DNA of 64,000 nucleotides from Minisyncoccota bacterium (GTDB lineage Bacteria; Patescibacteriota; Minisyncoccia; Phycocordibacterales; JACRKE01). Shown here piece by piece: positions 14,387 through 62,579 of this stretch. Where the stretch lies: the NCBI GenBank assembly GCA_041660505.1, contig JBAZWG010000001.1:179979-243978 (forward strand), read 5' to 3'. The notes under the pieces are model-generated. The model was not told the DNA's origin and ran no database searches. It worked only from the letters and a program-made list of their open reading frames with translations. Numbering within the stretch: the first letter of the stretch is position 1; each line of letters starts with the position of its first letter. The position numbers and the translations under genes were made by a program.

Positions 14387-14413
14387 GCTTTCGGCGACCC
14401 AAGTTTCAATCTG

Positions 14414-14500
14414 CGGATCGGGTGGGATTCGAACCCACGAGACTATTGCTAGTCTGGCAGTTTAGTAAACTGCTGCCTTCAACCACTCGGCCACCGATCC
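14414..14500 (-). tRNA. type-II (long variable arm) tRNA, Ser-like, nominal anticodon ACU
   Basis: Reverse complement GGAUCGG-UG-GCCGAGUGGUUGAAGGC-A-GCAGU-UUACUAA-ACUGC-CAGACUAGCAAUAGUCUCG-GUGGGUUCGAAUCCCAC-CCGAUCC-G. The acceptor pairs fully. The D-arm is Ser-like. The anticodon loop UUACUAA gives ACU in place of the usual GCU. Confidence 0.7.
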
Positions 14501-14573
14501 TTGCGAATTACCAGACTATCACATTTACCGGCTAGAAAAAAGGTGGAAATAATGCTAGATTTATCAAGTATTT

Positions 14574-14662
14574 GGAGCCGTGGTGGAGTGGTCTAACATA
14601 CCTCTTTGCTAAAGAGGCGGCCGGGTAAAACTGGCCCGCGAGTTCGAATCTCGCCGGCTCCG
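14574..14662 (+). tRNA. tRNA-Ser (anticodon GCU)
   Basis: GGAGCCG-UG-GUGGAGUGGUCUAACAU-A-CCUCU-UUGCUAA-AGAGG-CGGCCGGGUAAAACUGGCCCG-CGAGUUCGAAUCUCG-CCGGCUCC-G. Type II with a long variable arm. Confidence 0.9.
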
Positions 14663-14698
14663 TTTGTAAAATTTTATTAATCTTTATATAATACGTTC

Positions 14699-15593: not shown

Positions 15594-18500
15594 TTGCCGA
15601 ACACTGTTACGAGCATAGCGCGCGTCGCAGGACCGACGACTCCGTATCCGATCGCTCCCCTTTTCGCGATACCATACTTCTCTTGGAATTTCTGGACAGC
15701 TTGAAGTGTCAGATTGCCGAAGTAGCCGGTGACTTGTCCATTCTTATATATAGACTTATCTTGAGCCAATAGTCTCTGGAGCAGAGTAACACTGCTACCT
15801 CTAGAACCAATGACCAACACAGAGTTGATGCTTGAAGCGCCCTTAATAGTTGCGGGTACTCGAACTTGTGTTTGTGCTCTTTTAGAAATTACGGGGTGGA
15901 GAAAAATGAAACTGTCTGCCGGCGTAACTGTGGGTACTACTTTCTCCATCACCTTAGGCTTAGCATCACTAAACAATCCCATCACCCAGCCGTAGATAGG
16001 GCCGTTGTTGCTAGCGAGACGGACCACCTCAGGCACGGCTGTTAATGTGCCGAAGGTCGTGAAGTGGTAAGTTAAGACTTTCGTCTGCAGGCCATTACTG
16101 ATACCGCATTCGCCGAACGGTGTCGGATCTGTCGGAGAGGAATATGTACCGGCGCAAGTTGAGAGCGTCTGCCAAGTGTCTGAGCCGGCCATCTTGAATA
16201 CCATTGTCTTAACAGTGTCGAATGTGAGAGTAACTGCTTTGTCAAATATGAGAGTAACATCGGCTGAACCGATCTGTATAGCATCGCCGACCAAAAAACC
16301 GGATGGCGAAGTGCCAGCACTACTACCCGTAATGGGCGGGGTTATTTTGCCGTCCCAGTCGGTGGGGCCCATTATGGACGTGGCATCAGGGATAGACAAA
16401 CTTGTGCCGGAGACTGCCGAACCGGTAATGACTACTGGAGAGCCAGTCGTACCGGAATTAAGAGTGAAGCCGGTGCCGACTGTGACAGTCTTATCCGCAA
16501 TCGTTTGGGGTTGAGTCAAGTCGACAGAGACAAGCGAACCGCTCGTGAATGCGCCAAGCGGCAAGATTGAACCATTAAGAGTTAAGTTGCCACCAGAGAT
16601 TGATGACAGACTAGTGGACGCAGACAACGGGGAGGATTCGGAAAGGACCAGTGTTGTAATAGAACTCGGCATGGTGACACCGCCAGAAGAAGTTCCTTCG
16701 AACACGACCGGTTCACTGCCACCGGTTACGGTGGTACCGCTCGTCGTCAGGGATTTGAAGTTTCTTGTGGCAGAAGTGTTAACGTTACCGGCAAGGTCGT
16801 TGCAGGTGACAGTCAAAGTATGAGCTGTGCCTGTTATGCCGGTAATTGCGCTAGCAGTATGAGTGGTTCCTCCGGTCGTGGCGAAGGCAACCGAGTCCGC
16901 GCCATCGTATGAATATGTGCAGGTTGCCGCTTCATTGGTTGTGACTTGCGGGGTAGTTGAAGTGGCAATCATAGAACCTTCTGTCGGAGTCGTGATGCTG
17001 ATCGTAGGAGTAGACTTATCGAAGGTGACGCCAGAGCCGGAAGTGATAGCCGTCACCGCAGAAGCGGCGTTGCCAACGATATCTGTCGGAGTGATACTAA
17101 ACTGTATCACCTGTTGGGTGTCGCCGGATATCATCGTGGTCGAGGCCGTCCATGACGTACCGGAGCCTGTAATATTCGCACTGCGGCTGGCAATAAGAAC
17201 AGTAGGAGTTGTAATGCTTTCGTTGGCAGTAAATGTTAAGGTGACGATATCGTTCGTTGTGGCTCTGGAGGCGGTCGTATTGTTGTTCGAGGCGATCGTG
17301 ACAGGAGAAAGCGTCGGGGCAGATTTATCGAAGGTTACATTGGAACCGGAAGTGACAGCGAGCGCGGTCGTGCCGACATTCCCCGCCAAGTCAACCGGTG
17401 TAATGGCAAAGCTAATGGCGCTTTCGGTATCGCCGGTCTCCATCGTCTGCGTGGCGCTCCAGGATGAATTCGAACCTGATACACTGGCCGCTCTGCCAGC
17501 GATGGTTACCGTTGGCGTCTTGATATTCTCATCTGTTGTAAATATGAGCGTCACAATATTGGCCACCTTCGCAAGTGTGTTGGTCGTGTTGTTGGAAGAT
17601 ATCGTGACGGTTGACACTGCCGGTGGGGTTTTGTCGAAGCGAACATTAGAGCCCGACGTGATGGCGGTGACGGCGATGCCGGAGTTGCCTGCCATATCAA
17701 TAGGTGTTGCCGAGAACGTAACTGTGCCGTTCGTGTCCCCCGTCTCCATCGTGGTCGAGGCTGTCCACGACGTGCCAGAGCCAAGGACAGTTGCAGGGCG
17801 ACCGAAGATTGTGACAGTCGGCGTGGCGATGGCTTCAGAACTTGTGAACGTAAGGGTCACAATATCAGCGACTTTTGCGAGCGTGTTAGTAGTATTGTTA
17901 GAAGATATAGTAACAGGCGAGAGGGTCGGTACGGTTTTGTCAAATACGACATTCAGACCTGTTGTGATGGCGGTAACAGCCGAGCCTTCGTTCCCCGCCG
18001 CATCTGTCGGCGTGATGGAAAATGCCACGGCCGTTTCGCTATCGCCGGACTGCATCGTCGTCGAGGCCGTCCACGTCGTACCCGAACCGAGTACAGTTGC
18101 GCTCCTGCCGGCAATGGTTACCACCGGCGTTCGCAAACTCTCGTCTGCCGTGAATGCGAGGGTAACGACATTATCTGTTTTCGCCAGAGTCGTCGATGAA
18201 TTGGATGATGAGATAGTAACAGTTGGCACGGTTGGAACTGTTTTATCAAAAGTGACAGCCGAGCCGTTGGACGTTGCCGTGACGGGCGTGGCCTCATTCC
18301 CTAACGTATCCGTGGCTGTCACCGAGAAGGTAACCACTGCTTCAGTATCTCCTGCTTGCATCGTGGTCGAGGCTTGCCATGTCGTGCCGGAGCCGGTGAT
18401 GTTCGCACCTCTACCATCGATGGTTACAACGGGAGTTTGAATGGATTTATTTGCTGTGAACGAGAGTGTAACGATGTCGTCTGTCTTTGCGCGCGTAGTG

Positions 18501-20617
18501 CTTGAGTTATTAGACGTAATTGTTATTGGCGCGAGCACTGGCGCGGACTTGTCCATCGTAACGCTTGATGAATTGGTTGTGCTTGTGACAGCAGAAGCAA
18601 CATTGCCAGCCGTATCTGTCGCGGTGATGCTGAACGGTATTGCAATTTCCGGATCGTCAGCCGTCATTGTGGTCGAGGCCGTCCAAGACGTGCCGGAGCC
18701 GGTGATGTTCGCACCTCTGCCGGCGATAGTAACAGTAGGGGAAACTATCGCTTCGTTCGCGACGATTGTAAGCGTAACAATACTGCCGATGCCGGCCTTA
18801 GTGGTATCAGAATTGTTTGAAGCTATCGTAACTGTGTCGAGCGTGGGGGGATTGAAGTCGGCATCGGCAGTGGCAGCAGCTGCACCAGTAGAACCATTGT
18901 GACTGCCACCGCTAGTACCGCTACCGCCTGCGGCCGCGACACTCCCGCTCCACGAACCACCACTTGAATAATGAACTGCAACTATTCCTCCCCCGCCACC
19001 ACCGCTAACATTATTAGTCGTGCCCGCACCGCCGGTCGCCGTTATACTGCCAGAACCTGCGAGAGTATTTGTGTATATATAGACACCACCGCCAGCACCA
19101 CCTCCGCCAGTTTGTGAAAATTGGCCACTTGTACCATCAGAACCATTTGCGACTATAGTGCCGTTAAGTGTAAAACTGCCTGTTGCCAAAATTGAAAGAT
19201 GGCCACCGCCCGCGCCACCGCTTGCGTATCCGCCGACTTCACTTCCCGCACCTCCGGAGCCCATGTCTGTAGGGTGAGTCGCGGTATCGTAAGCGACACC
19301 TCCGCCGGCCCCATTGCCACCGTCTCCCCCTCTGCCGCCATGGCCACCTCCGTCACCTTGGACAGTCACTCCCACTCCTCCTCCGCCGGGTCCGTTGCCT
19401 ATTTGCGTGGGACTCCCTCCGGTATACCCCTTACCTGAGATGCTAATGGATCCGCCAGAATCAATTGTAACGTCTGTAATTGTCCAATCTATGTAATTTG
19501 TTTTGGCTGTGGTATTCGTCTTGTGAGTCATTAGACCGCTCGATTTTATCGTGAGAGCATCAAGGGTAATAGTGTTATCAGCGAAGCCAGTACCAACATT
19601 AGAAGATACTCCGTTGTTAGCAACAAAAATTTCACCATATGTCTCTGCGGCTGATTTTGTAAAAATAGTTCCGGCTCCGGCATCCTGACCTCCGCTGTAA
19701 TGAGTACCGCCGTATGCTTTAACGTAAGTGTCAAAGTTGGACGACGTAAACATGTTGTTCGTGGTGTAACGAATTGCAATTCTGCCACCCCCACCACCAC
19801 CGCTAGAGTTGTTCGAGCTACCCACACCTCCGTTTGCGGTGATAGTCCCCGCACCGTTCAGAGTCCCTGTGTTTATTAAAATACTTCCGCCCGCGCCACC
19901 ACCACCGGTTTGAGAAAACTGACCACCTACCGCATTGGAACCATTCGCCGAAATCGTTCCGCCGATTGTTGCCGTACCCGAAATTGTAAGGCTAATAAGA
20001 CCACCTCCTGTGCCACCGCTTGCATAACCTCCAACACCACTTCCGGAACCGCCCGATCCCATATCTGTCGGTGTAGAGGCAGAATCATAGACCGTACCTC
20101 CGGCACCACCATCTCCCTTACCGCCAAATCCTCCATGGCCACCACCGTTGCCCTGGATGTCTGCGCCTCCTACGCCGCCGCCGGGGCCGGAACCGGAAGT
20201 CAAGCCGCCACCGCCCGCATAACCCAAACCGGCCGCAGTGAGAGTGCCGTTGATGGTCGTGCTCGCGGCGGTAATATTTACACTGCCGTAACTAGCGCCG
20301 TCATACGCTTTGACAGAAACCGTGCCGGAAGGAATTGAGAACCCTGCTATCCCGCAGTGAGCGCCGGCGATAGCGATTCCCGCCGTGCCGTCCAAGTCCC
20401 ACGTGTCGCCATTGGTTGGTGTCCAGTCCTGGTCTACGCCATCTACGGCGTGATCATTCGCACATGTGTCGGCCTTACTTATAAAAGGGGTTAGTGCGAA
20501 TTTATGGATAGCGACGGCAACAACAGCCACCGCCAAGACGTGGACAAAAATATGGAATGCCGGACACCTTTCCGCATCAATAAAGTGGCGCGACAGCGTT
20601 GTTGGATATTTCGCCAT
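15590..20617 (-). CDS. giant cell-surface protein: N-terminal TM anchor, Gly-rich beta-helix-like region, ~9 tandem ~95-aa Ig-like repeats, C-terminal peptidoglycan-binding-like domain
   Basis: 1675 aa. The repeated unit is TVTISSNNSxTTLAKxxxIVTLxFTxxExIxTPxVTIAGRxAxxxGSGTxWxASTTM..GD....FSITPxDxAGNxG. Repeat units of about 285 bp are visible in the DNA at 16860-18900. GG[AS]G-rich stretches are present. The C-terminus has LLQRLLAQDKSIYKNGQVTGYFGNLTLQAVQKFQEKYGI. Confidence 0.7.
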   Translation of the reverse strand: MAKYPTTLSRHFIDAERCPAFHIFVHVLAVAVVAVAIHKFALTPFISKADTCANDHAVDGVDQDWTPTNGDTWDLDGTAGIAIAGAHCGIAGFSIPSGTVSVKAYDGASYGSVNITAASTTINGTLTAAGLGYAGGGGLTSGSGPGGGVGGADIQGNGGGHGGFGGKGDGGAGGTVYDSASTPTDMGSGGSGSGVGGYASGGTGGGLISLTISGTATIGGTISANGSNAVGGQFSQTGGGGAGGSILINTGTLNGAGTITANGGVGSSNNSSGGGGGGRIAIRYTTNNMFTSSNFDTYVKAYGGTHYSGGQDAGAGTIFTKSAAETYGEIFVANNGVSSNVGTGFADNTITLDALTIKSSGLMTHKTNTTAKTNYIDWTITDVTIDSGGSISISGKGYTGGSPTQIGNGPGGGGVGVTVQGDGGGHGGRGGDGGNGAGGGVAYDTATHPTDMGSGGAGSEVGGYASGGAGGGHLSILATGSFTLNGTIVANGSDGTSGQFSQTGGGGAGGGVYIYTNTLAGSGSITATGGAGTTNNVSGGGGGGIVAVHYSSGGSWSGSVAAAGGSGTSGGSHNGSTGAAAATADADFNPPTLDTVTIASNNSDTTKAGIGSIVTLTIVANEAIVSPTVTIAGRGANITGSGTSWTASTTMTADDPEIAIPFSITATDTAGNVASAVTSTTNSSSVTMDKSAPVLAPITITSNNSSTTRAKTDDIVTLSFTANKSIQTPVVTIDGRGANITGSGTTWQASTTMQAGDTEAVVTFSVTATDTLGNEATPVTATSNGSAVTFDKTVPTVPTVTISSSNSSTTLAKTDNVVTLAFTADESLRTPVVTIAGRSATVLGSGTTWTASTTMQSGDSETAVAFSITPTDAAGNEGSAVTAITTGLNVVFDKTVPTLSPVTISSNNTTNTLAKVADIVTLTFTSSEAIATPTVTIFGRPATVLGSGTSWTASTTMETGDTNGTVTFSATPIDMAGNSGIAVTAITSGSNVRFDKTPPAVSTVTISSNNTTNTLAKVANIVTLIFTTDENIKTPTVTIAGRAASVSGSNSSWSATQTMETGDTESAISFAITPVDLAGNVGTTALAVTSGSNVTFDKSAPTLSPVTIASNNNTTASRATTNDIVTLTFTANESITTPTVLIASRSANITGSGTSWTASTTMISGDTQQVIQFSITPTDIVGNAASAVTAITSGSGVTFDKSTPTISITTPTEGSMIATSTTPQVTTNEAATCTYSYDGADSVAFATTGGTTHTASAITGITGTAHTLTVTCNDLAGNVNTSATRNFKSLTTSGTTVTGGSEPVVFEGTSSGGVTMPSSITTLVLSESSPLSASTSLSSISGGNLTLNGSILPLGAFTSGSLVSVDLTQPQTIADKTVTVGTGFTLNSGTTGSPVVITGSAVSGTSLSIPDATSIMGPTDWDGKITPPITGSSAGTSPSGFLVGDAIQIGSADVTLIFDKAVTLTFDTVKTMVFKMAGSDTWQTLSTCAGTYSSPTDPTPFGECGISNGLQTKVLTYHFTTFGTLTAVPEVVRLASNNGPIYGWVMGLFSDAKPKVMEKVVPTVTPADSFIFLHPVISKRAQTQVRVPATIKGASSINSVLVIGSRGSSVTLLQRLLAQDKSIYKNGQVTGYFGNLTLQAVQKFQEKYGIAKRGAIGYGVVGPATRAMLVTVFGN

Positions 20618-22722: not shown

Positions 22723-22813
22723 CTATCGCACGGCACGTGCGAAACTTGCTTTATCCTACAGATTTCCGTCAATAACGCAAACAGCGGAGGTTCAACCTCC
22801 GCTGTTCTGTTGT

Positions 22814-22857
22814 CACCGAGGAGAGACCTCCGCTTTTCCGGAGGACTCACCTCGCCG
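22814..22857. repeat. ~45-nt GC-rich palindromic element (CCGAGGAGAGACCTCCG-loop-CGGAGGACTCACCTCGG family), copy 1
   Basis: Imperfect hairpin immediately 3' of groEL. Related copies are at 47953-48000, 48014-48062 and 62533-62579. Confidence 0.7.
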
Positions 22858-22907
22858 TCTTTAATTTTATTATTCCTAACTCCTATCTCCCATCTCCTAA
22901 CTCCTCT

Positions 22908-30196: not shown

Positions 30197-31159
30197 CTAA
30201 AGCATTTCCTGTAACTTCTGTGTATTTCCGTGCTTTAGCAACCCGAGATAGGATTGCAGGGTAGCTGGATTGTGTAGCTTTTTCTGCAAGTTTCTAAACA
30301 TCCGTTTCTTCGTCGTCGTGCGCAGTACCCGGTGATCGGGAAAATGCACCCATCCCAGGAAGTCGACGCCAGAAGCAAGTGTAGCGATAGAAACCTTGTT
30401 CGGATGCAATGAAAGCTTGAGCATTATATTCAGAAAATCAGAAATTTGGGGAATGAGTTGTTCGAGTAATGTTTTGTCATCAGAAAGAAAGACAAAATCA
30501 TCTGCATAACGAATGTAATGCTTTACTTTTAGTTTGTGTTTCACATACTGATCGAACTCGTCCATGTAAATATTCACTAAAAGTTGCGAGGTCAGATTAC
30601 CGAGCGGCAGACCGGTTTGAAAACTTGAAATTACTTTCTCAAGCAACCACTGGACGTTCTCGTCAGAAATATATTCTGCAAGAATGCTAAAAATAATCTG
30701 GTGGTTGATGTTCGCAAAGAACTTGCGTATGTCGCATTTGAGTACCCAGCAGGTACGGGTATTATTCTTGGACATCCGATGTCCAAATTCTTCAAATCGC
30801 TTGAGTGCCTTGTGAGTTCCCTTTCGTAACCGACAAGAGTATGAGTCAGATATAAAAGTCCCGTCGAAGAAGGGATAGAGTTTGCGGTAGAGCGCGTGAT
30901 GTAATAACCTGTCGCGCACCGACGCCTTATGAATATCGCGAGGCTTGGGGTCATTAATTTTGAAGTGCTCATAGTGGCCGTGCATATAGGTAAAACTTTT
31001 CAATTCTCGATGAAGAGTCAAGATATTGTGCAGTAAATGTAACTGAAAAACTTGCACGTCGGCTTTCGTCTTTTTATCTCGAACAAAGTTTTGCCACGCA
31101 AATAACAAATTCTTTACGGAAATGATCTCTTCATAGCTAGTTGTAAACTTTTTTCTCAT
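30197..31159 (-). CDS. DGR reverse transcriptase
   Basis: RT motifs in order: RPRDIHKASVRDRLLHHAL, CDIRKFFANINH, GLPLGNLTSQLLVNIYM (the DGR-type [LI]GxxxSQ signature replacing QGxxxSP) and YIRYADDFVFL. 320 aa, with no maturase or endonuclease domains. Confidence 0.85.
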   Translation of the reverse strand: MRKKFTTSYEEIISVKNLLFAWQNFVRDKKTKADVQVFQLHLLHNILTLHRELKSFTYMHGHYEHFKINDPKPRDIHKASVRDRLLHHALYRKLYPFFDGTFISDSYSCRLRKGTHKALKRFEEFGHRMSKNNTRTCWVLKCDIRKFFANINHQIIFSILAEYISDENVQWLLEKVISSFQTGLPLGNLTSQLLVNIYMDEFDQYVKHKLKVKHYIRYADDFVFLSDDKTLLEQLIPQISDFLNIMLKLSLHPNKVSIATLASGVDFLGWVHFPDHRVLRTTTKKRMFRNLQKKLHNPATLQSYLGLLKHGNTQKLQEML

Positions 31160-31202: not shown

Positions 31203-31213
31203 CCCCCCCCCCC
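31203..31213. repeat. homopolymeric C11 tract (G11 on the RT strand)
   Basis: taCCCCCCCCCCCgcaac, 44-54 nt upstream of the RT ATG, in the divergent RT/avd intergenic region. Confidence 0.9.
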
Positions 31214-31588: not shown

Positions 31589-31693
31589 AGCGGGAGACGA
31601 CCTGATTGCCGTCGTTCCACCTGTTCGGGTTCTCGACCGAGTTCGCGTTGACGTTCCAGCCGTTGCCGGAGTTCCAGTTCGCGTTCACGACCC
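31589..31693 (-). repeat. DGR1 template repeat (TR)
   Basis: 105-nt match to 32058-32162. All 17 mismatches are T on the plus strand here (A on minus). TT doublets correspond to AAC (Asn) codons in minus sense. Confidence 0.8.
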
Positions 31694-32055
31694 AGAGAAA
31701 CAAGCGCCACGCACCGTGCAGACTGCCATCCGTGCCACTGTTCTTTGAGTTCTTTTGGAATACTCGCCGAGCTGTATCGTGTCTGGGACATTCAAAGTCC
31801 GCCAGCAATCTGCACCGATCCTCACTCTTTTTTAGAGCTTGCTGTATCCACACTTGGTGCAGGCGTACCCGCACTAATTCTCGAATACAGGGATGCGAGG
31901 CCCTCTGCACAAGCCGTAGCCGGTGCAATGGAGTGGCCTTAACTTGAGAAGCTAGCATATGTAGATAAAAAACAAAACCCCCCGATACCTGCCGCCAAAG
32001 CGACAAAGTGTCAGAGGGCTTAAGAAGAAAGAATAAGTGACCGAGGTAAACAGGA

Positions 32056-32787
32056 TCAGCGGGAGACGACCTGAAGGCCGACGCTCCACCTGAGCGGGCC
32101 CTCGACCGAGCGCGCGAGGACGTACCAGCCGTTGCCGGAGTCCCAGCCCGCGCTCACGAACCAGAGAACGCCATTTTCGTCCTCGACATACGCGATGTTC
32201 GCGTAGCCGTTGACGAGGAGCGGGCCAGTCTCTCCGCGGGGCTGCTGCAACAGCATACCCCAGAAGTGGGCTAGCTTGATGACCCGGCGAGCTTCATCGA
32301 GCTCGCTCATGATTTCGGGATCGAGTGAGGAACGGAGGAGGGTGTGGCAGCGCAGCTCGGCCTTCTCGACGTCGGTCTCGATCTTGTTCGAGAAGTTCGC
32401 CTTGAAGTTGTCGCCCAGGTAGTAGATCTGGACGGCGGCCTTCGCGGAGGTGTCGAGCTTGAAGTGCTTCTTCACTTCGAACTTGTCGTAGGACGGCACG
32501 ATGGTCGTGCCTTCGACGAGCTTGAGCCGCGGCTGCGCGGGCGGTGCGGATGGCGAGACAACCTCGGGCTTGACGACGAGCGTCTTGCCCGAGTTGATGG
32601 CTGCACACGCGTCCGCCATCTGTTCCCGCACGGACTTCTTGTCCTTGTGCGCGAGCGCCGCCTGTTGCTCAGGCGTAAGCTTGCCGAGGAGTTCGGCGGC
32701 GAGGAGGAGTCGCGCATTTGCGATCTTCCCCGCGAGGTCGTAGGACGCTCCGCGTCCTCGGGTGTCGGGCAATCCCTTTCTGGGCAT
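32056..32787 (-). CDS. DGR1 target protein (C-type-lectin-like C-terminus carrying VR)
   Basis: Start set at MPRKGLPD, with SD GGAAGGAGGTG 5 nt upstream. The C-terminus ...WFVSAGWDSGNGWYVLARSVEGPLRWSVGLQVVSR is encoded by the VR and ends at the stop. No signal peptide. Confidence 0.7.
   Translation of the reverse strand: MPRKGLPDTRGRGASYDLAGKIANARLLLAAELLGKLTPEQQAALAHKDKKSVREQMADACAAINSGKTLVVKPEVVSPSAPPAQPRLKLVEGTTIVPSYDKFEVKKHFKLDTSAKAAVQIYYLGDNFKANFSNKIETDVEKAELRCHTLLRSSLDPEIMSELDEARRVIKLAHFWGMLLQQPRGETGPLLVNGYANIAYVEDENGVLWFVSAGWDSGNGWYVLARSVEGPLRWSVGLQVVSR
32058..32162 (-). repeat. DGR1 variable repeat (VR)
   Basis: Homologous to TR1, with A/G/C at the 17 positions where TR1 has T (plus strand). 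It abuts the target stop codon. Confidence 0.8.
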
Positions 32788-32981
32788 TGGACACCTCCTT
32801 CCCACACAGCGGTGGGGTACACGGTAAATGATAGTCTTGCAACCGAGCAAGTATCATTAACCGCGATCACTTATCGGTTTTCAATATAGCGAAGCTGCCG
32901 TATAATTTAGCATACTCTTTCGATATATGTCAATAGCAGTTATCCAGAACTAATTTTGTCACCGCGCGATATAATAGAGAT

Positions 32982-47763: not shown

Positions 47764-47952
47764 GACAAAACTCCTTTTCCAGCCAATGGGAATGATTCCC
47801 AAAAGCCCTAATTCCTCCGTGGGTGGAGACGTACTGTTCCATGTTCCCCCAGAGGCGAGTGACCGTATCAAGGTTGTTATAGCATACTGCCAACAAGAGA
47901 ACAACTCGACCCCAGTGGCTCATTTCCCACCATTTGACCCGAGGATGCTTGG

Positions 47953-48000
47953 TCGCCGAGGAGAGACCTCCGCTTTTACCGGAGGACTCACCTCGGCGAC
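47953..48000. repeat. GC-rich palindromic element, copy 2
   Basis: GTCGCCGAGGAGAGACCTCCGCTTTTACCGGAGGACTCACCTCGGCGAC. Confidence 0.7.
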
Positions 48001-52645: not shown

Positions 52646-52873
52646 TTAGGCCGGCACCAATTTTGATGTTGCAAACGGTACTTGAATATCGATATGCGAA
52701 AGGTCATTCAGCGACAGCTTTTTGCTTGCTTCCAAAATCTCAATGCCGAGCAGTGACTTGTCTTCACCAATGTCAAAAATCACACCGTCTGTTGGTTCTT
52801 CATTTTCCAAGAACTTCCCTTCTCGAAGTTTTATGTACAGCGCATCGGCTGTTGTGTCGTAGCTAATTTTCAT
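52646..52873 (-). CDS. DUF2283-family protein (putative antitoxin)
   Basis: 75 aa, MKISYDTTADALYIKL pattern. It overlaps the upstream DUF4258 gene by 11 nt. Confidence 0.55.
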   Translation of the reverse strand: MKISYDTTADALYIKLREGKFLENEEPTDGVIFDIGEDKSLLGIEILEASKKLSLNDLSHIDIQVPFATSKLVPA

Positions 52874-53093
52874 ATGTTTTGTGCCAAATGGTTGAGATGA
52901 TAATCGTATGCTTTCCCTCCGGTTTACAAACTATTTTTATTGTCCCTGCTTTTAACTTCTTAAAGATTACTTCTCGTTCATCGTGTCCTACTATTTTCTC
53001 ATCTGGGTGCTCTAGCCCTTCGTTCACCATTTTCTCGGTGATTGACCGTTCAGCCATTCGCTCTTTTGCGTGTTCCGTATAGATGACGGTCAT
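52863..53093 (-). CDS. DUF4258-family protein (putative toxin)
   Basis: 76 aa, MTVIYTEHAKERMAERSIT pattern. Confidence 0.55.
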   Translation of the reverse strand: MTVIYTEHAKERMAERSITEKMVNEGLEHPDEKIVGHDEREVIFKKLKAGTIKIVCKPEGKHTIIISTIWHKTYEN

Positions 53094-53143: not shown

Positions 53144-54139
53144 TTAGCCAATTGTTTTTTGTATGCCATGTCCATTGCAATGTTTGAGTAGCCCGACATA
53201 TGACTGTATTACATCAGGATTATATTCTTTTCCTACTATATTCCGAAACATTCGTTTTTTAGTCTTTGTTCGCAAAATGCGATGATTTGGAAACTGCACA
53301 TAACCGAGAAAATCAATTCCTTGCCGTAGTTTAGAAATCGAAACTTTTTTCGGATGAAGTGAGAGCTTTAGTTTTTCTTGCAAAAAAACGTTGACACGAG
53401 GCAATAAAGCCTCAAGCTCTGTATGACTTTGTGAAAGTATAACGAAATCATCGCAGTAACGAATGTAGTACTTTTGTTTAAGGATATGTTTTACGAACTG
53501 ATCCAGCTCATTCAGGTACACATTGGCAAACAGTTGGCTCGTCACATTGCCGAGCGGTATTGCCTTGCCTTGTATTTTTTCAAAACTGCCGATGATTTTT
53601 TTGATTAGCCACTTAGTATCTTCTCCGTGGATAACATGAGACAGTAGTCTAAGCAAAATTTCGTGATCGATAGTATCGAAAAACTTGCGAATATCGCATT
53701 TGAGCACATACGCGAGCTGATTATTATTCGCACTAACTCTTCGGCCGAACGCATGCAGTCGCTCGACTCCCGCATGCGTTCCCTTGCGAAACCGGCATGA
53801 GTAGGAGTCGAAGATAAAATGCTGATCGAATTGGTGATACAAGACTCGGAAAATTGCTTGGTGTAGTACGCGATCAAAGACCGTTGCTTTGTGGATGTGC
53901 CGGAGTTTCGGATCGCGGACGTAGAACGCTTCATACCGGCCGGTCTCGTATGTTTTGTTTTTTAGCTGTTCGTGGAGCAAAAACAGATTATCTTCGAGTC
54001 GGAATTCAAATTCCTGAACGTCTTGCTTTTTCGTCTTGCCTCGTTTAAACTCGCGCCATGCGGCAAATAGATTTTCGAGTGAAATAATCCGTTCAAATAC
54101 ATGATCGAAAATTCCACTAATAAGACCCCCCCCCGGCAC
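53144..54139 (-). CDS. DGR reverse transcriptase (paralog)
   Basis: Motifs CDIRKFFDTIDH, AIPLGNVTSQLFANVYL (the [LI]GxxxSQ signature) and YIRYCDDFVIL. The GTG start is immediately followed by an in-frame G9 tract encoding PGGG. Confidence 0.85.
   Translation of the reverse strand: MPGGGLISGIFDHVFERIISLENLFAAWREFKRGKTKKQDVQEFEFRLEDNLFLLHEQLKNKTYETGRYEAFYVRDPKLRHIHKATVFDRVLHQAIFRVLYHQFDQHFIFDSYSCRFRKGTHAGVERLHAFGRRVSANNNQLAYVLKCDIRKFFDTIDHEILLRLLSHVIHGEDTKWLIKKIIGSFEKIQGKAIPLGNVTSQLFANVYLNELDQFVKHILKQKYYIRYCDDFVILSQSHTELEALLPRVNVFLQEKLKLSLHPKKVSISKLRQGIDFLGYVQFPNHRILRTKTKKRMFRNIVGKEYNPDVIQSYVGLLKHCNGHGIQKTIG
54126..54134. repeat. homopolymeric C9 tract (G9 on the RT strand) at the RT2 5' end
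   Basis: agaCCCCCCCCCgg, located in codons 2-5 of the RT2 ORF as called and 70 nt from the avd2 ATG. Confidence 0.9.
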
Positions 54140-54206
54140 TCTCCAAATCCCCTTGGTTCATAAGATTCGTGAAGTATATCGGAGTTTATATATTGTCGGC
54201 AAGCGG

Positions 54207-54491
54207 ATGCCGAAGCGAGATAGGTTCGGAATATACCAACAGCTCGAGACGTTAGTCTTGCTCTGTCTGCGGATTGCTATTACGGCCGCCTTATCAAAAC
54301 CGGAACAAAAGCCTCCTTTCATAACACGCTTGCGTATTGAAATTGAAGTATGCAAACAGCTTATCCGCGTGGCACACGAATTGGGCAGTATTGAGCAGAA
54401 AGATTATTTGATGTTATCAGAATTCCTTATCGAATGTTCCAAGATGTCCTATAAGTGGCTTGAGTCTCTAACCAAAAAGGAGCCGCAGTAA
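54207..54491 (+). CDS. avd: Avd-like four-helix-bundle protein (paralog)
   Basis: ORF 54153..54491 (TTG) with likely start MPKRDRFGIY, paralleling avd1 MPRLERFGLG. It is divergent from RT2. Confidence 0.6.
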   Translation: MPKRDRFGIYQQLETLVLLCLRIAITAALSKPEQKPPFITRLRIEIEVCKQLIRVAHELGSIEQKDYLMLSEFLIECSKMSYKWLESLTKKEPQ

Positions 54492-54513
54492 TGCGACTCC
54501 GCTTGGCGAGACT

Positions 54514-54626
54514 ATCTCACGGGTACGCAGGTTCTCGTTCGCATTGTCCGTGTTGTACCAGTTGACGTTCAGCTTGTCGTAGTTCCAGTTCACGTTCGGG
54601 ACGTTGCCGTCGGAATTGCGCGAGCC
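54514..54626 (-). repeat. DGR2 template repeat (TR)
   Basis: 113-nt match to 54934-55046. All 19 mismatches are T (plus strand), so A on the minus strand. Confidence 0.8.
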
Positions 54627-54857
54627 ATGTGTTGCCTCATGCCATCCACTTCACTGGCGGTCTTTTGCAAAGTCGCCTGTTCCCGTTTCTCGCGGTACTG
54701 CGCCGAGGCAGCTCTGTTTGGAGGCAGACTGCAAAATTATTTTTGCAAGACATCCTCGCCAGCATGAGGCACGTAGTTTCGTATAGACTGTGGCAAACCG
54801 ATATCTCGTTTTTTATGCGAGACCGATTGTATGAGCCAGATTAGTAGTATAAAAGAA

Positions 54858-54890
54858 TCGAACCCCATTTGCCAGAGGCAAACAGGGTTC
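54858..54890. repeat. hairpin downstream of VR2
   Basis: CGAACCC-cauuugccagaggcaaaca-GGGUUCG, about 45 nt 3' of the target stop in minus sense. Confidence 0.5.
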
Positions 54891-54922
54891 GAAAAGTGTA
54901 CAAAATAAAAAGGAGGCAAGTG

Positions 54923-55642
54923 TTACGAAACGACCTCACGGGCACGCAGGTGCTCGTGCGCACCGTCCGCGTCGTACCAGTGGACGCTCAGCTTGCCGTA
55001 GTACCAGTACACGAGCGGGACGTAGCCGCCGGAATAGCGCGAGCCCGAGCACAGCGTGATGTTCACGCTGTCCAAATGCTTCCCCGTTTCGAGGAAGTAC
55101 TTGAGCTCCAGGTCAAGGCGCTCGGGCAAGCTGATGCCCTGTACCTTCTTGTCCTCGAGGTCGTTGGCGGAGCAGTTCTTCCACTCGGCGTCTGCCTCAA
55201 CGCCGTCCCGCACCCAGATGGCGTGGGGCTTTTCGGTGCCGAAACGGTCGTTCCGCGTCACCGACGCGTCGAGGTCGGCCGTGTAGCGCCAGCAGGTGAA
55301 CTGCTTGGCGCAGACGTCGAACCTCCGGTTGATGGTGACGCCCGGTGCCTCGATGATGAGGCGACCGAAGCCCGGACGCGTGACGGGGATGGCGAGCTCA
55401 CGCAGGTCGAGTTTGACCTTGTAGAGATCGCCCCAATAGGCAATCCACGGGGTGAGCAACTTCTTGCGTGCCCGCCCGCCGAGCGCGCGCGGCCCCGTGC
55501 CTGCGCGCTCGAGCTTGAACGGGTTCCGACGCTGGAGGAAGAGCTTGACCTCTTCCTCGCTCAAGGCACCCGCCTTGAGCTTCGCCGTGAAGTCGACCAA
55601 AAGGTCGAACTTCGTGTTGTTACCGGCCTGTCCGTCAGACAT
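54923..55642 (-). CDS. DGR2 target protein (C-type-lectin-like C-terminus carrying VR)
   Basis: SD AGGAGG precedes the ATG by 6 nt. The C-terminus ...SGSRYSGGYVPLVYWYYGKLSVHWYDADGAHEHLRAREVVS is encoded by the VR. Confidence 0.7.
   Translation of the reverse strand: MSDGQAGNNTKFDLLVDFTAKLKAGALSEEEVKLFLQRRNPFKLERAGTGPRALGGRARKKLLTPWIAYWGDLYKVKLDLRELAIPVTRPGFGRLIIEAPGVTINRRFDVCAKQFTCWRYTADLDASVTRNDRFGTEKPHAIWVRDGVEADAEWKNCSANDLEDKKVQGISLPERLDLELKYFLETGKHLDSVNITLCSGSRYSGGYVPLVYWYYGKLSVHWYDADGAHEHLRAREVVS
54934..55046 (-). repeat. DGR2 variable repeat (VR)
   Basis: A/G/C at the 19 positions where TR2 has T (plus strand). Confidence 0.8.
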
Positions 55643-55839
55643 AGCCAGCCTCCTTTATTTCAATGCCTTTGGCTTTCCGGCAAACTATTTGCCATAAAAC
55701 CGCAAGCGTTCAGCTGGTTTTATATTATACAATAATTTACAATCTGTCAAGATAGGTTTTTTCGCTTAGTACACAACTTGGCACGGCCGTAACAAGTTAT
55801 GTACTATTATTTTTATAGCACACAAGACTCCCCCGTGTG

Positions 55840-62484: not shown

Positions 62485-62532
62485 GTAATTAGAAAATCCT
62501 AACATAATATTAGGATTTTCGGAAGCCTTTTT

Positions 62533-62579
62533 GTCGCCGAGGTGAGACCTCCGCCCTTGCTGGAGGACTCACCTCGGCG
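62533..62579. repeat. GC-rich palindromic element, copy 4
   Basis: GTCGCCGAGGTGAGACCTCCGCCCTTGCTGGAGGACTCACCTCGGCG. Confidence 0.7.

Follow-up and report, generated by a model that had tools for sequence, protein, structure and literature searches.

The window analysed here, i.e. the whole stretch of 64,000 nucleotides (64 kb) of DNA from a Minisyncoccota bacterium, contains two diversity-generating retroelements (DGRs). The present study deals with the second of them, DGR2 at positions 53144-55750, which is a genuine second DGR of a genome of the Patescibacteria (candidate phyla radiation, CPR) and is assembled from ordinary parts. Read along the minus strand, these are a promoter-like site, the target gene with the variable repeat (VR2), a hairpin, a leader, the template repeat (TR2), a stem-loop, avd2, a tract of nine G (G9) and the gene of the reverse transcriptase (RT2). 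All parts lie on the minus strand except avd2, and a non-coding leader of about 230 nt separates the hairpin behind VR2 from TR2. The individual features are:

55722-55750, minus: promoter-like site TTGACA-17-TAATAT, a candidate from a consensus scan (10/12 matches), located upstream of the target gene and about 80 nt from its start
54923-55642, minus: gene of the target (variable) protein, 239 aa, with N-terminal helices followed by a predicted C-terminal domain similar to C-type lectins and the formylglycine-generating enzyme (FGE)
54930-55045, minus: VR2, coding for 38 residues at the target C-terminus, with 19 differences to TR2, all at TR adenines
54858-54892, minus: post-VR hairpin of 16 bp with the loop UCU, followed by UUCUUUUAUA, most likely the intrinsic terminator of the target gene
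54642-54676, minus: leader of the TR RNA with an imperfect hairpin and AGUG-N4-GGAUGG, a motif conserved in about 100 related loci
54511-54626, minus: TR2, the invariant template repeat, with 35 A and 11 AAY codons
54479-54500, minus: stem-loop GGAGUCGCA-UUAC-UGCGGCUCC with 9 pairs and a tetraloop, 10 nt after TR2 and followed by UUUUUGG
54153-54491, plus: avd2, coding for an Avd homologue of 112 aa from TTG, assigned by Pfam bAvd, NCBIfam DivGenRetAVD and its conserved inverted position
54159-54161, minus: family-conserved RT start, ATG AAC CAA ('MNQ'), assigned from the N-termini of relatives and the phase analysis
54126-54134: simple-sequence repeat, G9 on the RT strand (C9 on the plus strand), inside the 5' coding region of the RT gene and 18 nt upstream of the avd start
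53144-54139, minus: open reading frame (ORF) of RT2 as assembled, 331 codons from GTG 54139, matching RVT_1, with the G tract read as P-G-G-G

The original prediction for this locus had the core cassette right, but it overlooked the inverted avd gene, the stem-loop behind TR2 and the homopolymer that throws the RT start out of frame.

The DGR2 cassette and its relatives

DGR2 carries all sequence hallmarks of a DGR and belongs, as a regular member, to a CPR clade that is already known and well populated. TR2 and VR2 are 116 nt long and offset by 419 nt. They differ at 19 of the 116 positions and, exactly as had been predicted for the minus sense, 19 of 19 mismatches are located at adenines of the TR, which contains 35 of them (hypergeometric P=1.4e-12); 18 of the 19 fall at codon positions 1-2. 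This A-specific pattern is the diagnostic signature of a DGR, and chance is no explanation for it. While the repeat pair itself had been recognized correctly, the position originally given for VR2 (54934-55046) was shifted by +1, and the register of 419 nt leads to the coordinates listed above. The substitutions in VR2 extend to 3 nt from the end of the TR/VR homology. VR2 spans residues 201-238 of the target protein at the 3' end of the ORF and translates to GSRYSGGYVPLVYWYYGKLSVHWYDADGAHEHLRAREV, the C-terminus of ORF 54923-55642(-), which agrees with the earlier assignment. No additional VR for TR2, or for TR1 of the other DGR, is present elsewhere in the window.

No signal peptide and no Pfam or NCBIfam domain match were found for the target protein. 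Its AlphaFold2 model (pLDDT 90) predicts with high confidence a C-type-lectin/FGE-like fold, with matches to FGE, TvpA, Mtd and TaqVP. Among 208 homologues of about 230-250 aa, every one with a source name comes from Patescibacteria or unclassified bacteria. One of them, from a metagenome-assembled genome named 'Candidatus Paceibacterota' (719-kb contig), is identical, and the prediction of a CPR-like genome is confirmed by this match. The alignment of the target family is conserved until ...TLCSGSR and then variable exactly across the VR.

The target genes are also far richer in GC than their RT and avd genes (64% vs 41% in the window, for 54923-55642 and 32056-32850). The medians in the family are 52% and 35.5%, the difference exceeds 5 points in 93% of 100 related loci, and it is not due to a depletion of A on the coding strand.

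As judged from its sequence, RT2 belongs among the DGR-clade reverse transcriptases, and its active-site motifs are intact: IPLGNVTSQ and YCDD, already noted in the original prediction, are present in 53144-54139 minus, and the protein matches Pfam RVT_1 with E 3e-23. Its best relative of solved structure is 8ub7_A (E 2.7e-45), the Bordetella RT (bRT), which is recognized as such because 8ub7 has the Avd of Bordetella phage (4dwl) as its chain B; RTs of the group II intron or retron type score 1e-21 or worse. The avd2 product matches Pfam bAvd with E 1.4e-9 (38.8 bits, cutoff 40) and NCBIfam DivGenRetAVD with E 6.8e-10, below the curated cutoff. Situated between TR and RT, the gene runs in the opposite direction to both of them and to VR.

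We surveyed 161 related loci from genome and metagenome collections, which together with the two DGRs of the window makes 163. The RTs of these relatives share 47-62% identity with RT2, and nearly all titled records are from Patescibacteria. An inverted avd gene is located directly upstream of the RT gene in 133 of the 139 loci with enough upstream sequence, and an A-specific TR/VR pair is present on the RT strand in 112 loci. Typically, TR ends about 400 nt before the RT gene and VR lies about 400-500 nt before TR. Two loci of the same strain from different samples (L126 and L133) have identical TRs and 21 differences between their VRs, 21 of 21 at TR adenines; the clade of DGR2 is therefore active in nature.

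Two further relatives deserve mention. The consensus of L187, a contig of the Joint Genome Institute (JGI), has N at exactly the variable sites of the VR, i.e. the TR adenines, which implies within-sample heterogeneity of the VR there. L002 (5001-8934) combines one RT and one inverted avd gene with two targets and two TRs. Its first TR is followed by a duplicate of the ligA 3' end (BRCT region), which looks as though ligA had received a target-TR module at its end.

The hairpin behind VR2 had been predicted to lie about 45 nt from the VR and to stimulate homing. The hairpin does exist (54892-54858(-); 16 perfect pairs, 3-nt loop, z -5.2, 0 of 200 shuffles fold as well), but it begins 37 nt past the last homologous base and 30 nt past the stop codon, and the homing role is not supported. 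In the homing hairpins defined by experiment, a GC-rich stem of 7-10 bp carries a GRNA loop of 4 nt, and the distance to the VR is 4-34 bp (PMC3240598); the present hairpin, by contrast, has a 16-bp stem and a UCU loop. A terminator scan scores the structure, which has a U-rich tail, as an intrinsic terminator. Terminator-like hairpins follow the VR in 56 of 67 relatives vs 12-15% of random windows. They lie about 24-81 nt from the VR in nearly all cases, apart from six calls that are just a few nt away from its end, and no conserved loop was found among these 56. Because of the terminator score, the variable distances and unrelated loops in the relatives and the mismatch to the known homing hairpins, this structure is most likely the intrinsic terminator of the target gene, although it may have a dual role that includes homing. 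The combination of an initiation of mutagenic homing site of the BPP-1 type (IMH/IMH*) and a GC-rich hairpin with a GRNA loop near VR2 was not found at DGR2. Wu et al. 2018 (PMC5758913) encountered such repeats in just 34% of DGRs, so that they do not define membership.

The stem-loop behind TR2 overlaps the stop codon of avd2 on the other strand. A hairpin of at least 6 bp follows TR in 100 of 105 non-redundant related loci, and in 93 of these 100 it begins 0-17 nt past the TR/VR homology; 8-12 pairs are formed in 76 cases and loops of 3-5 nt in 76. Its sequence differs among the loci with the pairing kept, and usually UUUUGUUU follows. Handa et al. found an Avd-binding stem-loop just downstream of TR in 207 of 278 Avd-containing DGRs, CPR included, and the predicted stem-loop of DGR2 fits this element. 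The U tract behind it may terminate the TR RNA, or the RNA may continue into avd in antisense, which is what a spacer like that of Bordetella would need.

On the other side of TR, a leader motif is located 15-35 nt upstream in about 100 loci, both DGRs of the window included. Its consensus is RGUG, followed after a few nt by a G-rich pentamer of the GRNGG type (most often GAUGG) and preceded by a small hairpin. RNAalifold revealed no consensus structure for 105 mini-RNAs. The energies of cognate vs non-cognate pairs did not differ significantly for the leader/spacer 'stop' duplex (p 0.09-0.12) or for the primer duplex of TR 3' end and spacer (p 0.10, 0.44, 0.79), and no covariation was found between the leader GGAUGG and the downstream CCANCC, which is the antisense of the 'GGW' codons of avd. 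Since neither the duplex tests nor the covariation analysis gave a signal, a 6-bp AGUCUC:GAGACU pairing in DGR2 is only a lead. There was no Rfam family match in the DGR region.

The paralogous DGR1 is located about 23 kb from DGR2 and has the same layout (RT1 30197-31159, TR1 31589-31699, VR1 32058-32168). That two paralogous DGRs with their own TR/VR pairs lie within 25 kb had been predicted correctly. RT1 and RT2 share 54% and the two Avd proteins 25% identity, and the targets are unrelated outside the VR. The helix-1 region of avd1 (NTLPLITKVKAVYILW) has no canonical in-frame start; ATG 31178 is out of frame at C11 and needs 12 or 9. Both NCBI and JGI call avd1 truncated at 100 aa.

The repeat tract between RT and avd

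Only two G/C homopolymers of at least 7 nt occur in the whole window, C11 at 31203-31213 in DGR1 and C9 at 54126-54134 in DGR2, each between RT and avd. The relatives show the same: a G run of at least 7 is present at this junction in 105 of 154 (range 7-14, mode 9-10), and 921 kb of related loci contain 103 G runs of at least 8 at the junction and 5 elsewhere. A (GA)n, (GT)n or (CT)n repeat replaces the homopolymer in L030, L044, L053, L076, L087, L102 and L123. Altogether, some kind of simple repeat is found at the junction in about 70% of the 154 relatives. On the sequence level, such an exchange of repeat types at a conserved site suggests that repetitiveness as such is selected for and not a particular sequence. 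Poly-proline in Avd or poly-glycine in RT was rejected as the main explanation, since dinucleotide repeats replace the homopolymer in some loci. An assembly artefact was likewise rejected, given the position-specific conservation in more than 100 independent assemblies, the continuous sequence on both flanks and the reproducible length states.

The RT start ATG AAC CAA is the reverse complement of codons 1-3 of avd2 (TTG GTT CAT). Since ATG AAY CAR of the RT gene is complementary to the first avd codons, the two genes start inside each other, and the tract sits in the coding region of RT and in the 5' leader of avd. Two types of tract-bearing loci can be distinguished. In type 1 (52 of 106, DGR2 included) the RT frame is open through the tract and there is no ATG downstream of it, and in type 2 (53 of 106, DGR1 included) the RT ATG is located about 13 nt or more past the tract. 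The RTs of type 1 relatives start with MNQ or MND about nine codons before the GGG(G) encoded by the tract. The corresponding ATG of DGR2 (54161) lies 27 nt upstream of the tract. With G9, it reads ATG AAC CAA GGG GAT TTG GAG AGT GCC, the tract and TCT TAT TAG, so that translation would stop after 14 codons (54119-54117). With G8 or G11 it would read MNQGDLESAGGGLISGIFDHVFERIIS (MNQGDLESAGGGLISG...), which matches the N-terminus of the family. The sole in-frame start of RT2 at G9 is the GTG (54139) abutting the tract, and the annotated length is 331 aa at JGI and 278 aa at NCBI.

The RT1 ATG (31159) of DGR1 is located 44 nt downstream of C11, and a -10-like TACTTT follows the tract. In DGR1 and other type 2 elements, the repeat may exert its effect through the RT promoter or, alternatively, through Avd. 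A promoter-spacer model for all loci was rejected and is retained as a possibility for type 2 only: in 45 of 62 loci the base after the tract is a T, but no more than 24 of the 62 have TAnnnT there, and the inferred spacers are scattered.

Length variation of the tract is directly visible in relatives. L180 carries G10 and five contigs (L163-L165, L167, L168) carry G9, with this one base as the sole difference to L180 across as much as 4566 nt; L166, the sixth contig with G9, has two additional substitutions and a differing 16-nt stretch (ten N). With G9, the start at the tract is kept in this group, and G10 sends that frame to a stop and puts another upstream ATG in frame. Ten contigs of a population from the Rifle aquifer (L181-L190) have an identical TR and four VR haplotypes, which differ from each other only at TR adenine positions; one haplotype has a single non-A mismatch to TR. 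Their tracts are G9, G10, G12 or GGGGGTGGGGGG, where G9 and G10 share one VR haplotype and G9, G10 and G12 share another. Otherwise these contigs are identical over 3.4 kb except for the VR, the tract, a low-complexity indel in ssb and a handful of point differences just beyond. Each length state recurs across several samples and assemblers.

The RT proteins themselves show a similar picture. All ten RT clusters of 90% identity that were examined contain differing N-termini on near-identical bodies. In at least 7 of the 10, members use different frames of one and the same upstream DNA or have an extra Gly, and in the rest the variants are N-terminal truncations. The truncated, out-of-frame calls are often the most abundant ones, e.g. 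25 vs 5 contigs in the P0127 cluster.

Among 71 contigs truncated upstream, 8 end within 60 nt of the tract position and some others inside TR or VR. This modest excess is consistent with assembly breaks at variable repeats.

A description of the junction tract was found neither in full-text literature searches nor in Wu et al. 2018, a scope that excludes Paul et al. 2017, so that a prior description is possible. Apparently, the putatively repeat-gated RT is an undescribed, family-wide variant feature.

A possible switch of mutagenesis and its alternatives

By analogy to the Bordetella element, the RNA containing TR2, with its conserved leader and the stem-loop just 3' of TR, would be reverse-transcribed by RT2 together with Avd2. 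Adenines would be miscopied and the cDNA would replace VR2. Up to 35 positions could be rewritten in this way, in the ligand-binding face of a domain with C-type-lectin fold at the C-terminus of the 239-aa protein. As the RT start lies upstream of the tract, the length of the tract would set the reading frame, and slipped-strand length changes would turn the synthesis of RT on and off, and mutagenesis with it. At G9, most of the sequenced population would be OFF or weak: RT2 is probably in such a phase, because the conserved RT start ATG 54161 falls out of frame with this tract length. Both tracts of the window (G9 of DGR2, C11 of DGR1) are out of phase with the nearest upstream ATG. We slightly favor the view that DGR2 is a DGR of the Patescibacteria clade whose RT is gated by a hypermutable G tract that switches mutagenesis. 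The extension of this idea to a large clade of patescibacterial DGRs seems evenly balanced to us; here RT would be under heritable and reversible ON/OFF control by simple-sequence repeats, in some members perhaps via the RT promoter or Avd, and hypermutation would be a bet-hedging, mostly-OFF trait, with two such switches in the genome of the window.

Several observations weigh against such a switch. The in-frame GTG 54139 could sustain RT synthesis at G9, and the element would then not be OFF. Only 9 of the 52 type 1 loci have their upstream ATG in frame, which is predicted by a mostly-OFF switch but equally by a wrongly assigned start codon. The sole other assembly of the DGR2 locus (Logan contig L179) is 100% identical to the window, three same-strain contig pairs show no tract difference, and homopolymers are error-prone in short-read assemblies, although each of the length states in the relatives was obtained repeatedly from independent samples and pipelines. 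Moreover, both profile scores of avd2 lie under the curated cutoffs. A metagenome scan with RT2 for same-strain variation revealed nothing above 62% identity. Look-ups of the exact RT proteins P0141 and P0208 gave one tract length each, with a selection bias, as the called ORF includes the tract.

Some of these points lead to the opposite assumption, that DGR2 is an ordinary, constitutively competent DGR and the tract is no switch. RT2 would then start at GTG 54139, or the tract would be a tolerated poly-Gly stretch or 5' leader, with length differences that are neutral or sequencing noise. The ORF of 331 codons, intact at G9 and annotated so by JGI, is in line with this, as are the equal tract lengths of the three same-strain pairs and the phases of the upstream ATG, which are near uniform across the loci, as if this ATG were irrelevant. 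However, the exclusive use of GGG/CCC codons and the dinucleotide replacements are hard to explain at the protein level, and the MNQ/MND...GGG peptide recurs whenever the ATG is in frame. Frameshifting lengths also recur in several independent samples on identical backgrounds, and G/C runs are concentrated about 20-fold at the junction. We therefore regard this explanation as unlikely, albeit as one that has to be taken seriously. Still less probable is a throttle at the level of RNA or ribosome, where RNA-polymerase slippage or ribosomal frameshifting restores the frame in a few transcripts and provides a low, constitutive RT level. Slippage on long homopolymers is well established, and such a throttle would suit the finding that most assembled alleles with an upstream ATG (32 of 41) are out of frame, yet possess intact RT bodies and belong to populations in which the VRs diversify. 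Dinucleotide repeats at the same site are, on the other hand, poor slippage signals for the restoration of a frame. Length polymorphism on the DNA level is directly observed in relatives, and a switch in the DNA would therefore exist regardless.

Finally, DGR2 might be decaying or silenced, with the frameshifted start as loss of function and VR2 as a fossil of past mutagenesis. The conserved start being out of frame at G9 and the RT of only 278 aa annotated by NCBI would both be expected in this case. We consider it very improbable, as there is no other lesion in RT2, avd2 or TR2 and both YCDD and LGNVTSQ are intact. Furthermore, the out-of-frame state is common in relatives whose VRs demonstrably change, and the tract is conserved across more than 100 loci.

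DGRs are enriched in CPR bacteria and are, to our knowledge, the only natural system of targeted protein hypermutation outside adaptive immunity; the control of their activity is little understood. If it is real, a frameshift switch in RT would explain why many DGRs look inactive in metagenomes, and the sequence would reveal the ON/OFF state in hundreds of genomes of uncultured organisms. Programmed mutability would gain a second layer, in which a mutable switch controls a mutator, and no contingency-locus logic would have been proposed for CPR bacteria before. If the tract is no switch, DGR2 is one more CPR DGR of the catalogued type. The start codons of RT and avd are routinely miscalled in this clade, as illustrated by RT2 (278 vs 331 aa) and by avd1 (cut to 100 aa).

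Genomic setting and comparison with known systems

DGR2 is flanked by the housekeeping genes serS, tgt and gyrB and a gene for a peptidase of the prolyl-oligopeptidase family, and is therefore chromosomal. Directly downstream of RT2, a pair of small genes with DUF4258 and DUF2283 is located at 52646-53093 (-); the overlapping ORFs resemble a toxin-antitoxin system, and there is no such pair beside DGR1. Elsewhere in the window, a repeat family with a period of about 306 nt (17003-18754; 4-5 copies, 60-77% identity) probably represents repetitive coding sequence. An element of 50 nt that contains a palindrome (GAGACCTCCG...CGGAGGACTC) is present in three copies (22809-22858, 47949-47998, 62530-62579), one of which adjoins tRNA-Thr. 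Two divergent tRNA-Ser genes are located at 14413-14500 (-) and 14573-14663 (+), and ARAGORN assigns the unusual anticodon ACT to one of them.

Among the known systems, the DGRs of CPR bacteria are the closest to DGR2. According to the text of Wu et al. 2018 (PMC5758913), 90% of CPR DGRs have architecture B3, whose order and orientation of avd and TR are not those of the core set, and we infer from this text that B3 is the inverted-avd layout. The DGR clade 2 of Roux et al. 2021 (PMC8144416) is restricted to Patescibacteria and has targets without recognizable domains. DGR2 agrees with both descriptions in its host group and, as far as the text on B3 goes, in an order and orientation of avd and TR unlike the core set. 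Its target is likewise devoid of a recognizable domain or a transmembrane segment, and its location is cellular and not viral. No part of DGR2 sets it apart from this family, and the junction repeat is not mentioned in the searched texts. The target resembles the variable proteins of other DGRs (Mtd 1yu0, TvpA 2y3c, TaqVP 5vf4) and FGE-like domains in its predicted fold and, as in these proteins, the variable residues are C-terminal.

With the experimental prototype, the DGR of Bordetella phage BPP-1 (mtd-VR, avd, TR, brt), DGR2 shares the A-specific flow from TR to VR, a bRT-like RT, an Avd homologue, a VR at the 3' end of the gene for a protein with C-type-lectin fold (predicted in DGR2) and a stem-loop directly 3' of TR. 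However, there are also clear differences. Since avd is inverted between TR and RT in DGR2, any RNA beyond the stem-loop is antisense to avd. The A-mutations reach within 3 nt of the homology end, so that there is no long invariant IMH, and the post-VR hairpin is terminator-like, unlike that of BPP-1 with its 8-bp stem and GRNA loop. DGR2 is chromosomal among housekeeping genes and not part of a phage, and its RT gene reads through a homopolymer.

This last feature resembles the contingency loci, in which poly-G or poly-C tracts are located in the 5' coding regions or promoters, as known from Campylobacter, Neisseria, Haemophilus and the fim genes of Bordetella. DGR2 differs from these in that the gene that would be gated is the RT of a mutagenesis system and not a surface or restriction-modification gene, the host belongs to the CPR, and the ON/OFF expression is a prediction. 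The likeness lies in a homopolymer of 8-14 nt, which type 1 loci such as DGR2 carry within the 5' coding region and type 2 loci such as DGR1 shortly upstream of a -10-like hexamer, in length states of relatives that differ by non-multiples of 3 on otherwise identical alleles, and in the other repeat types that occupy the same site.

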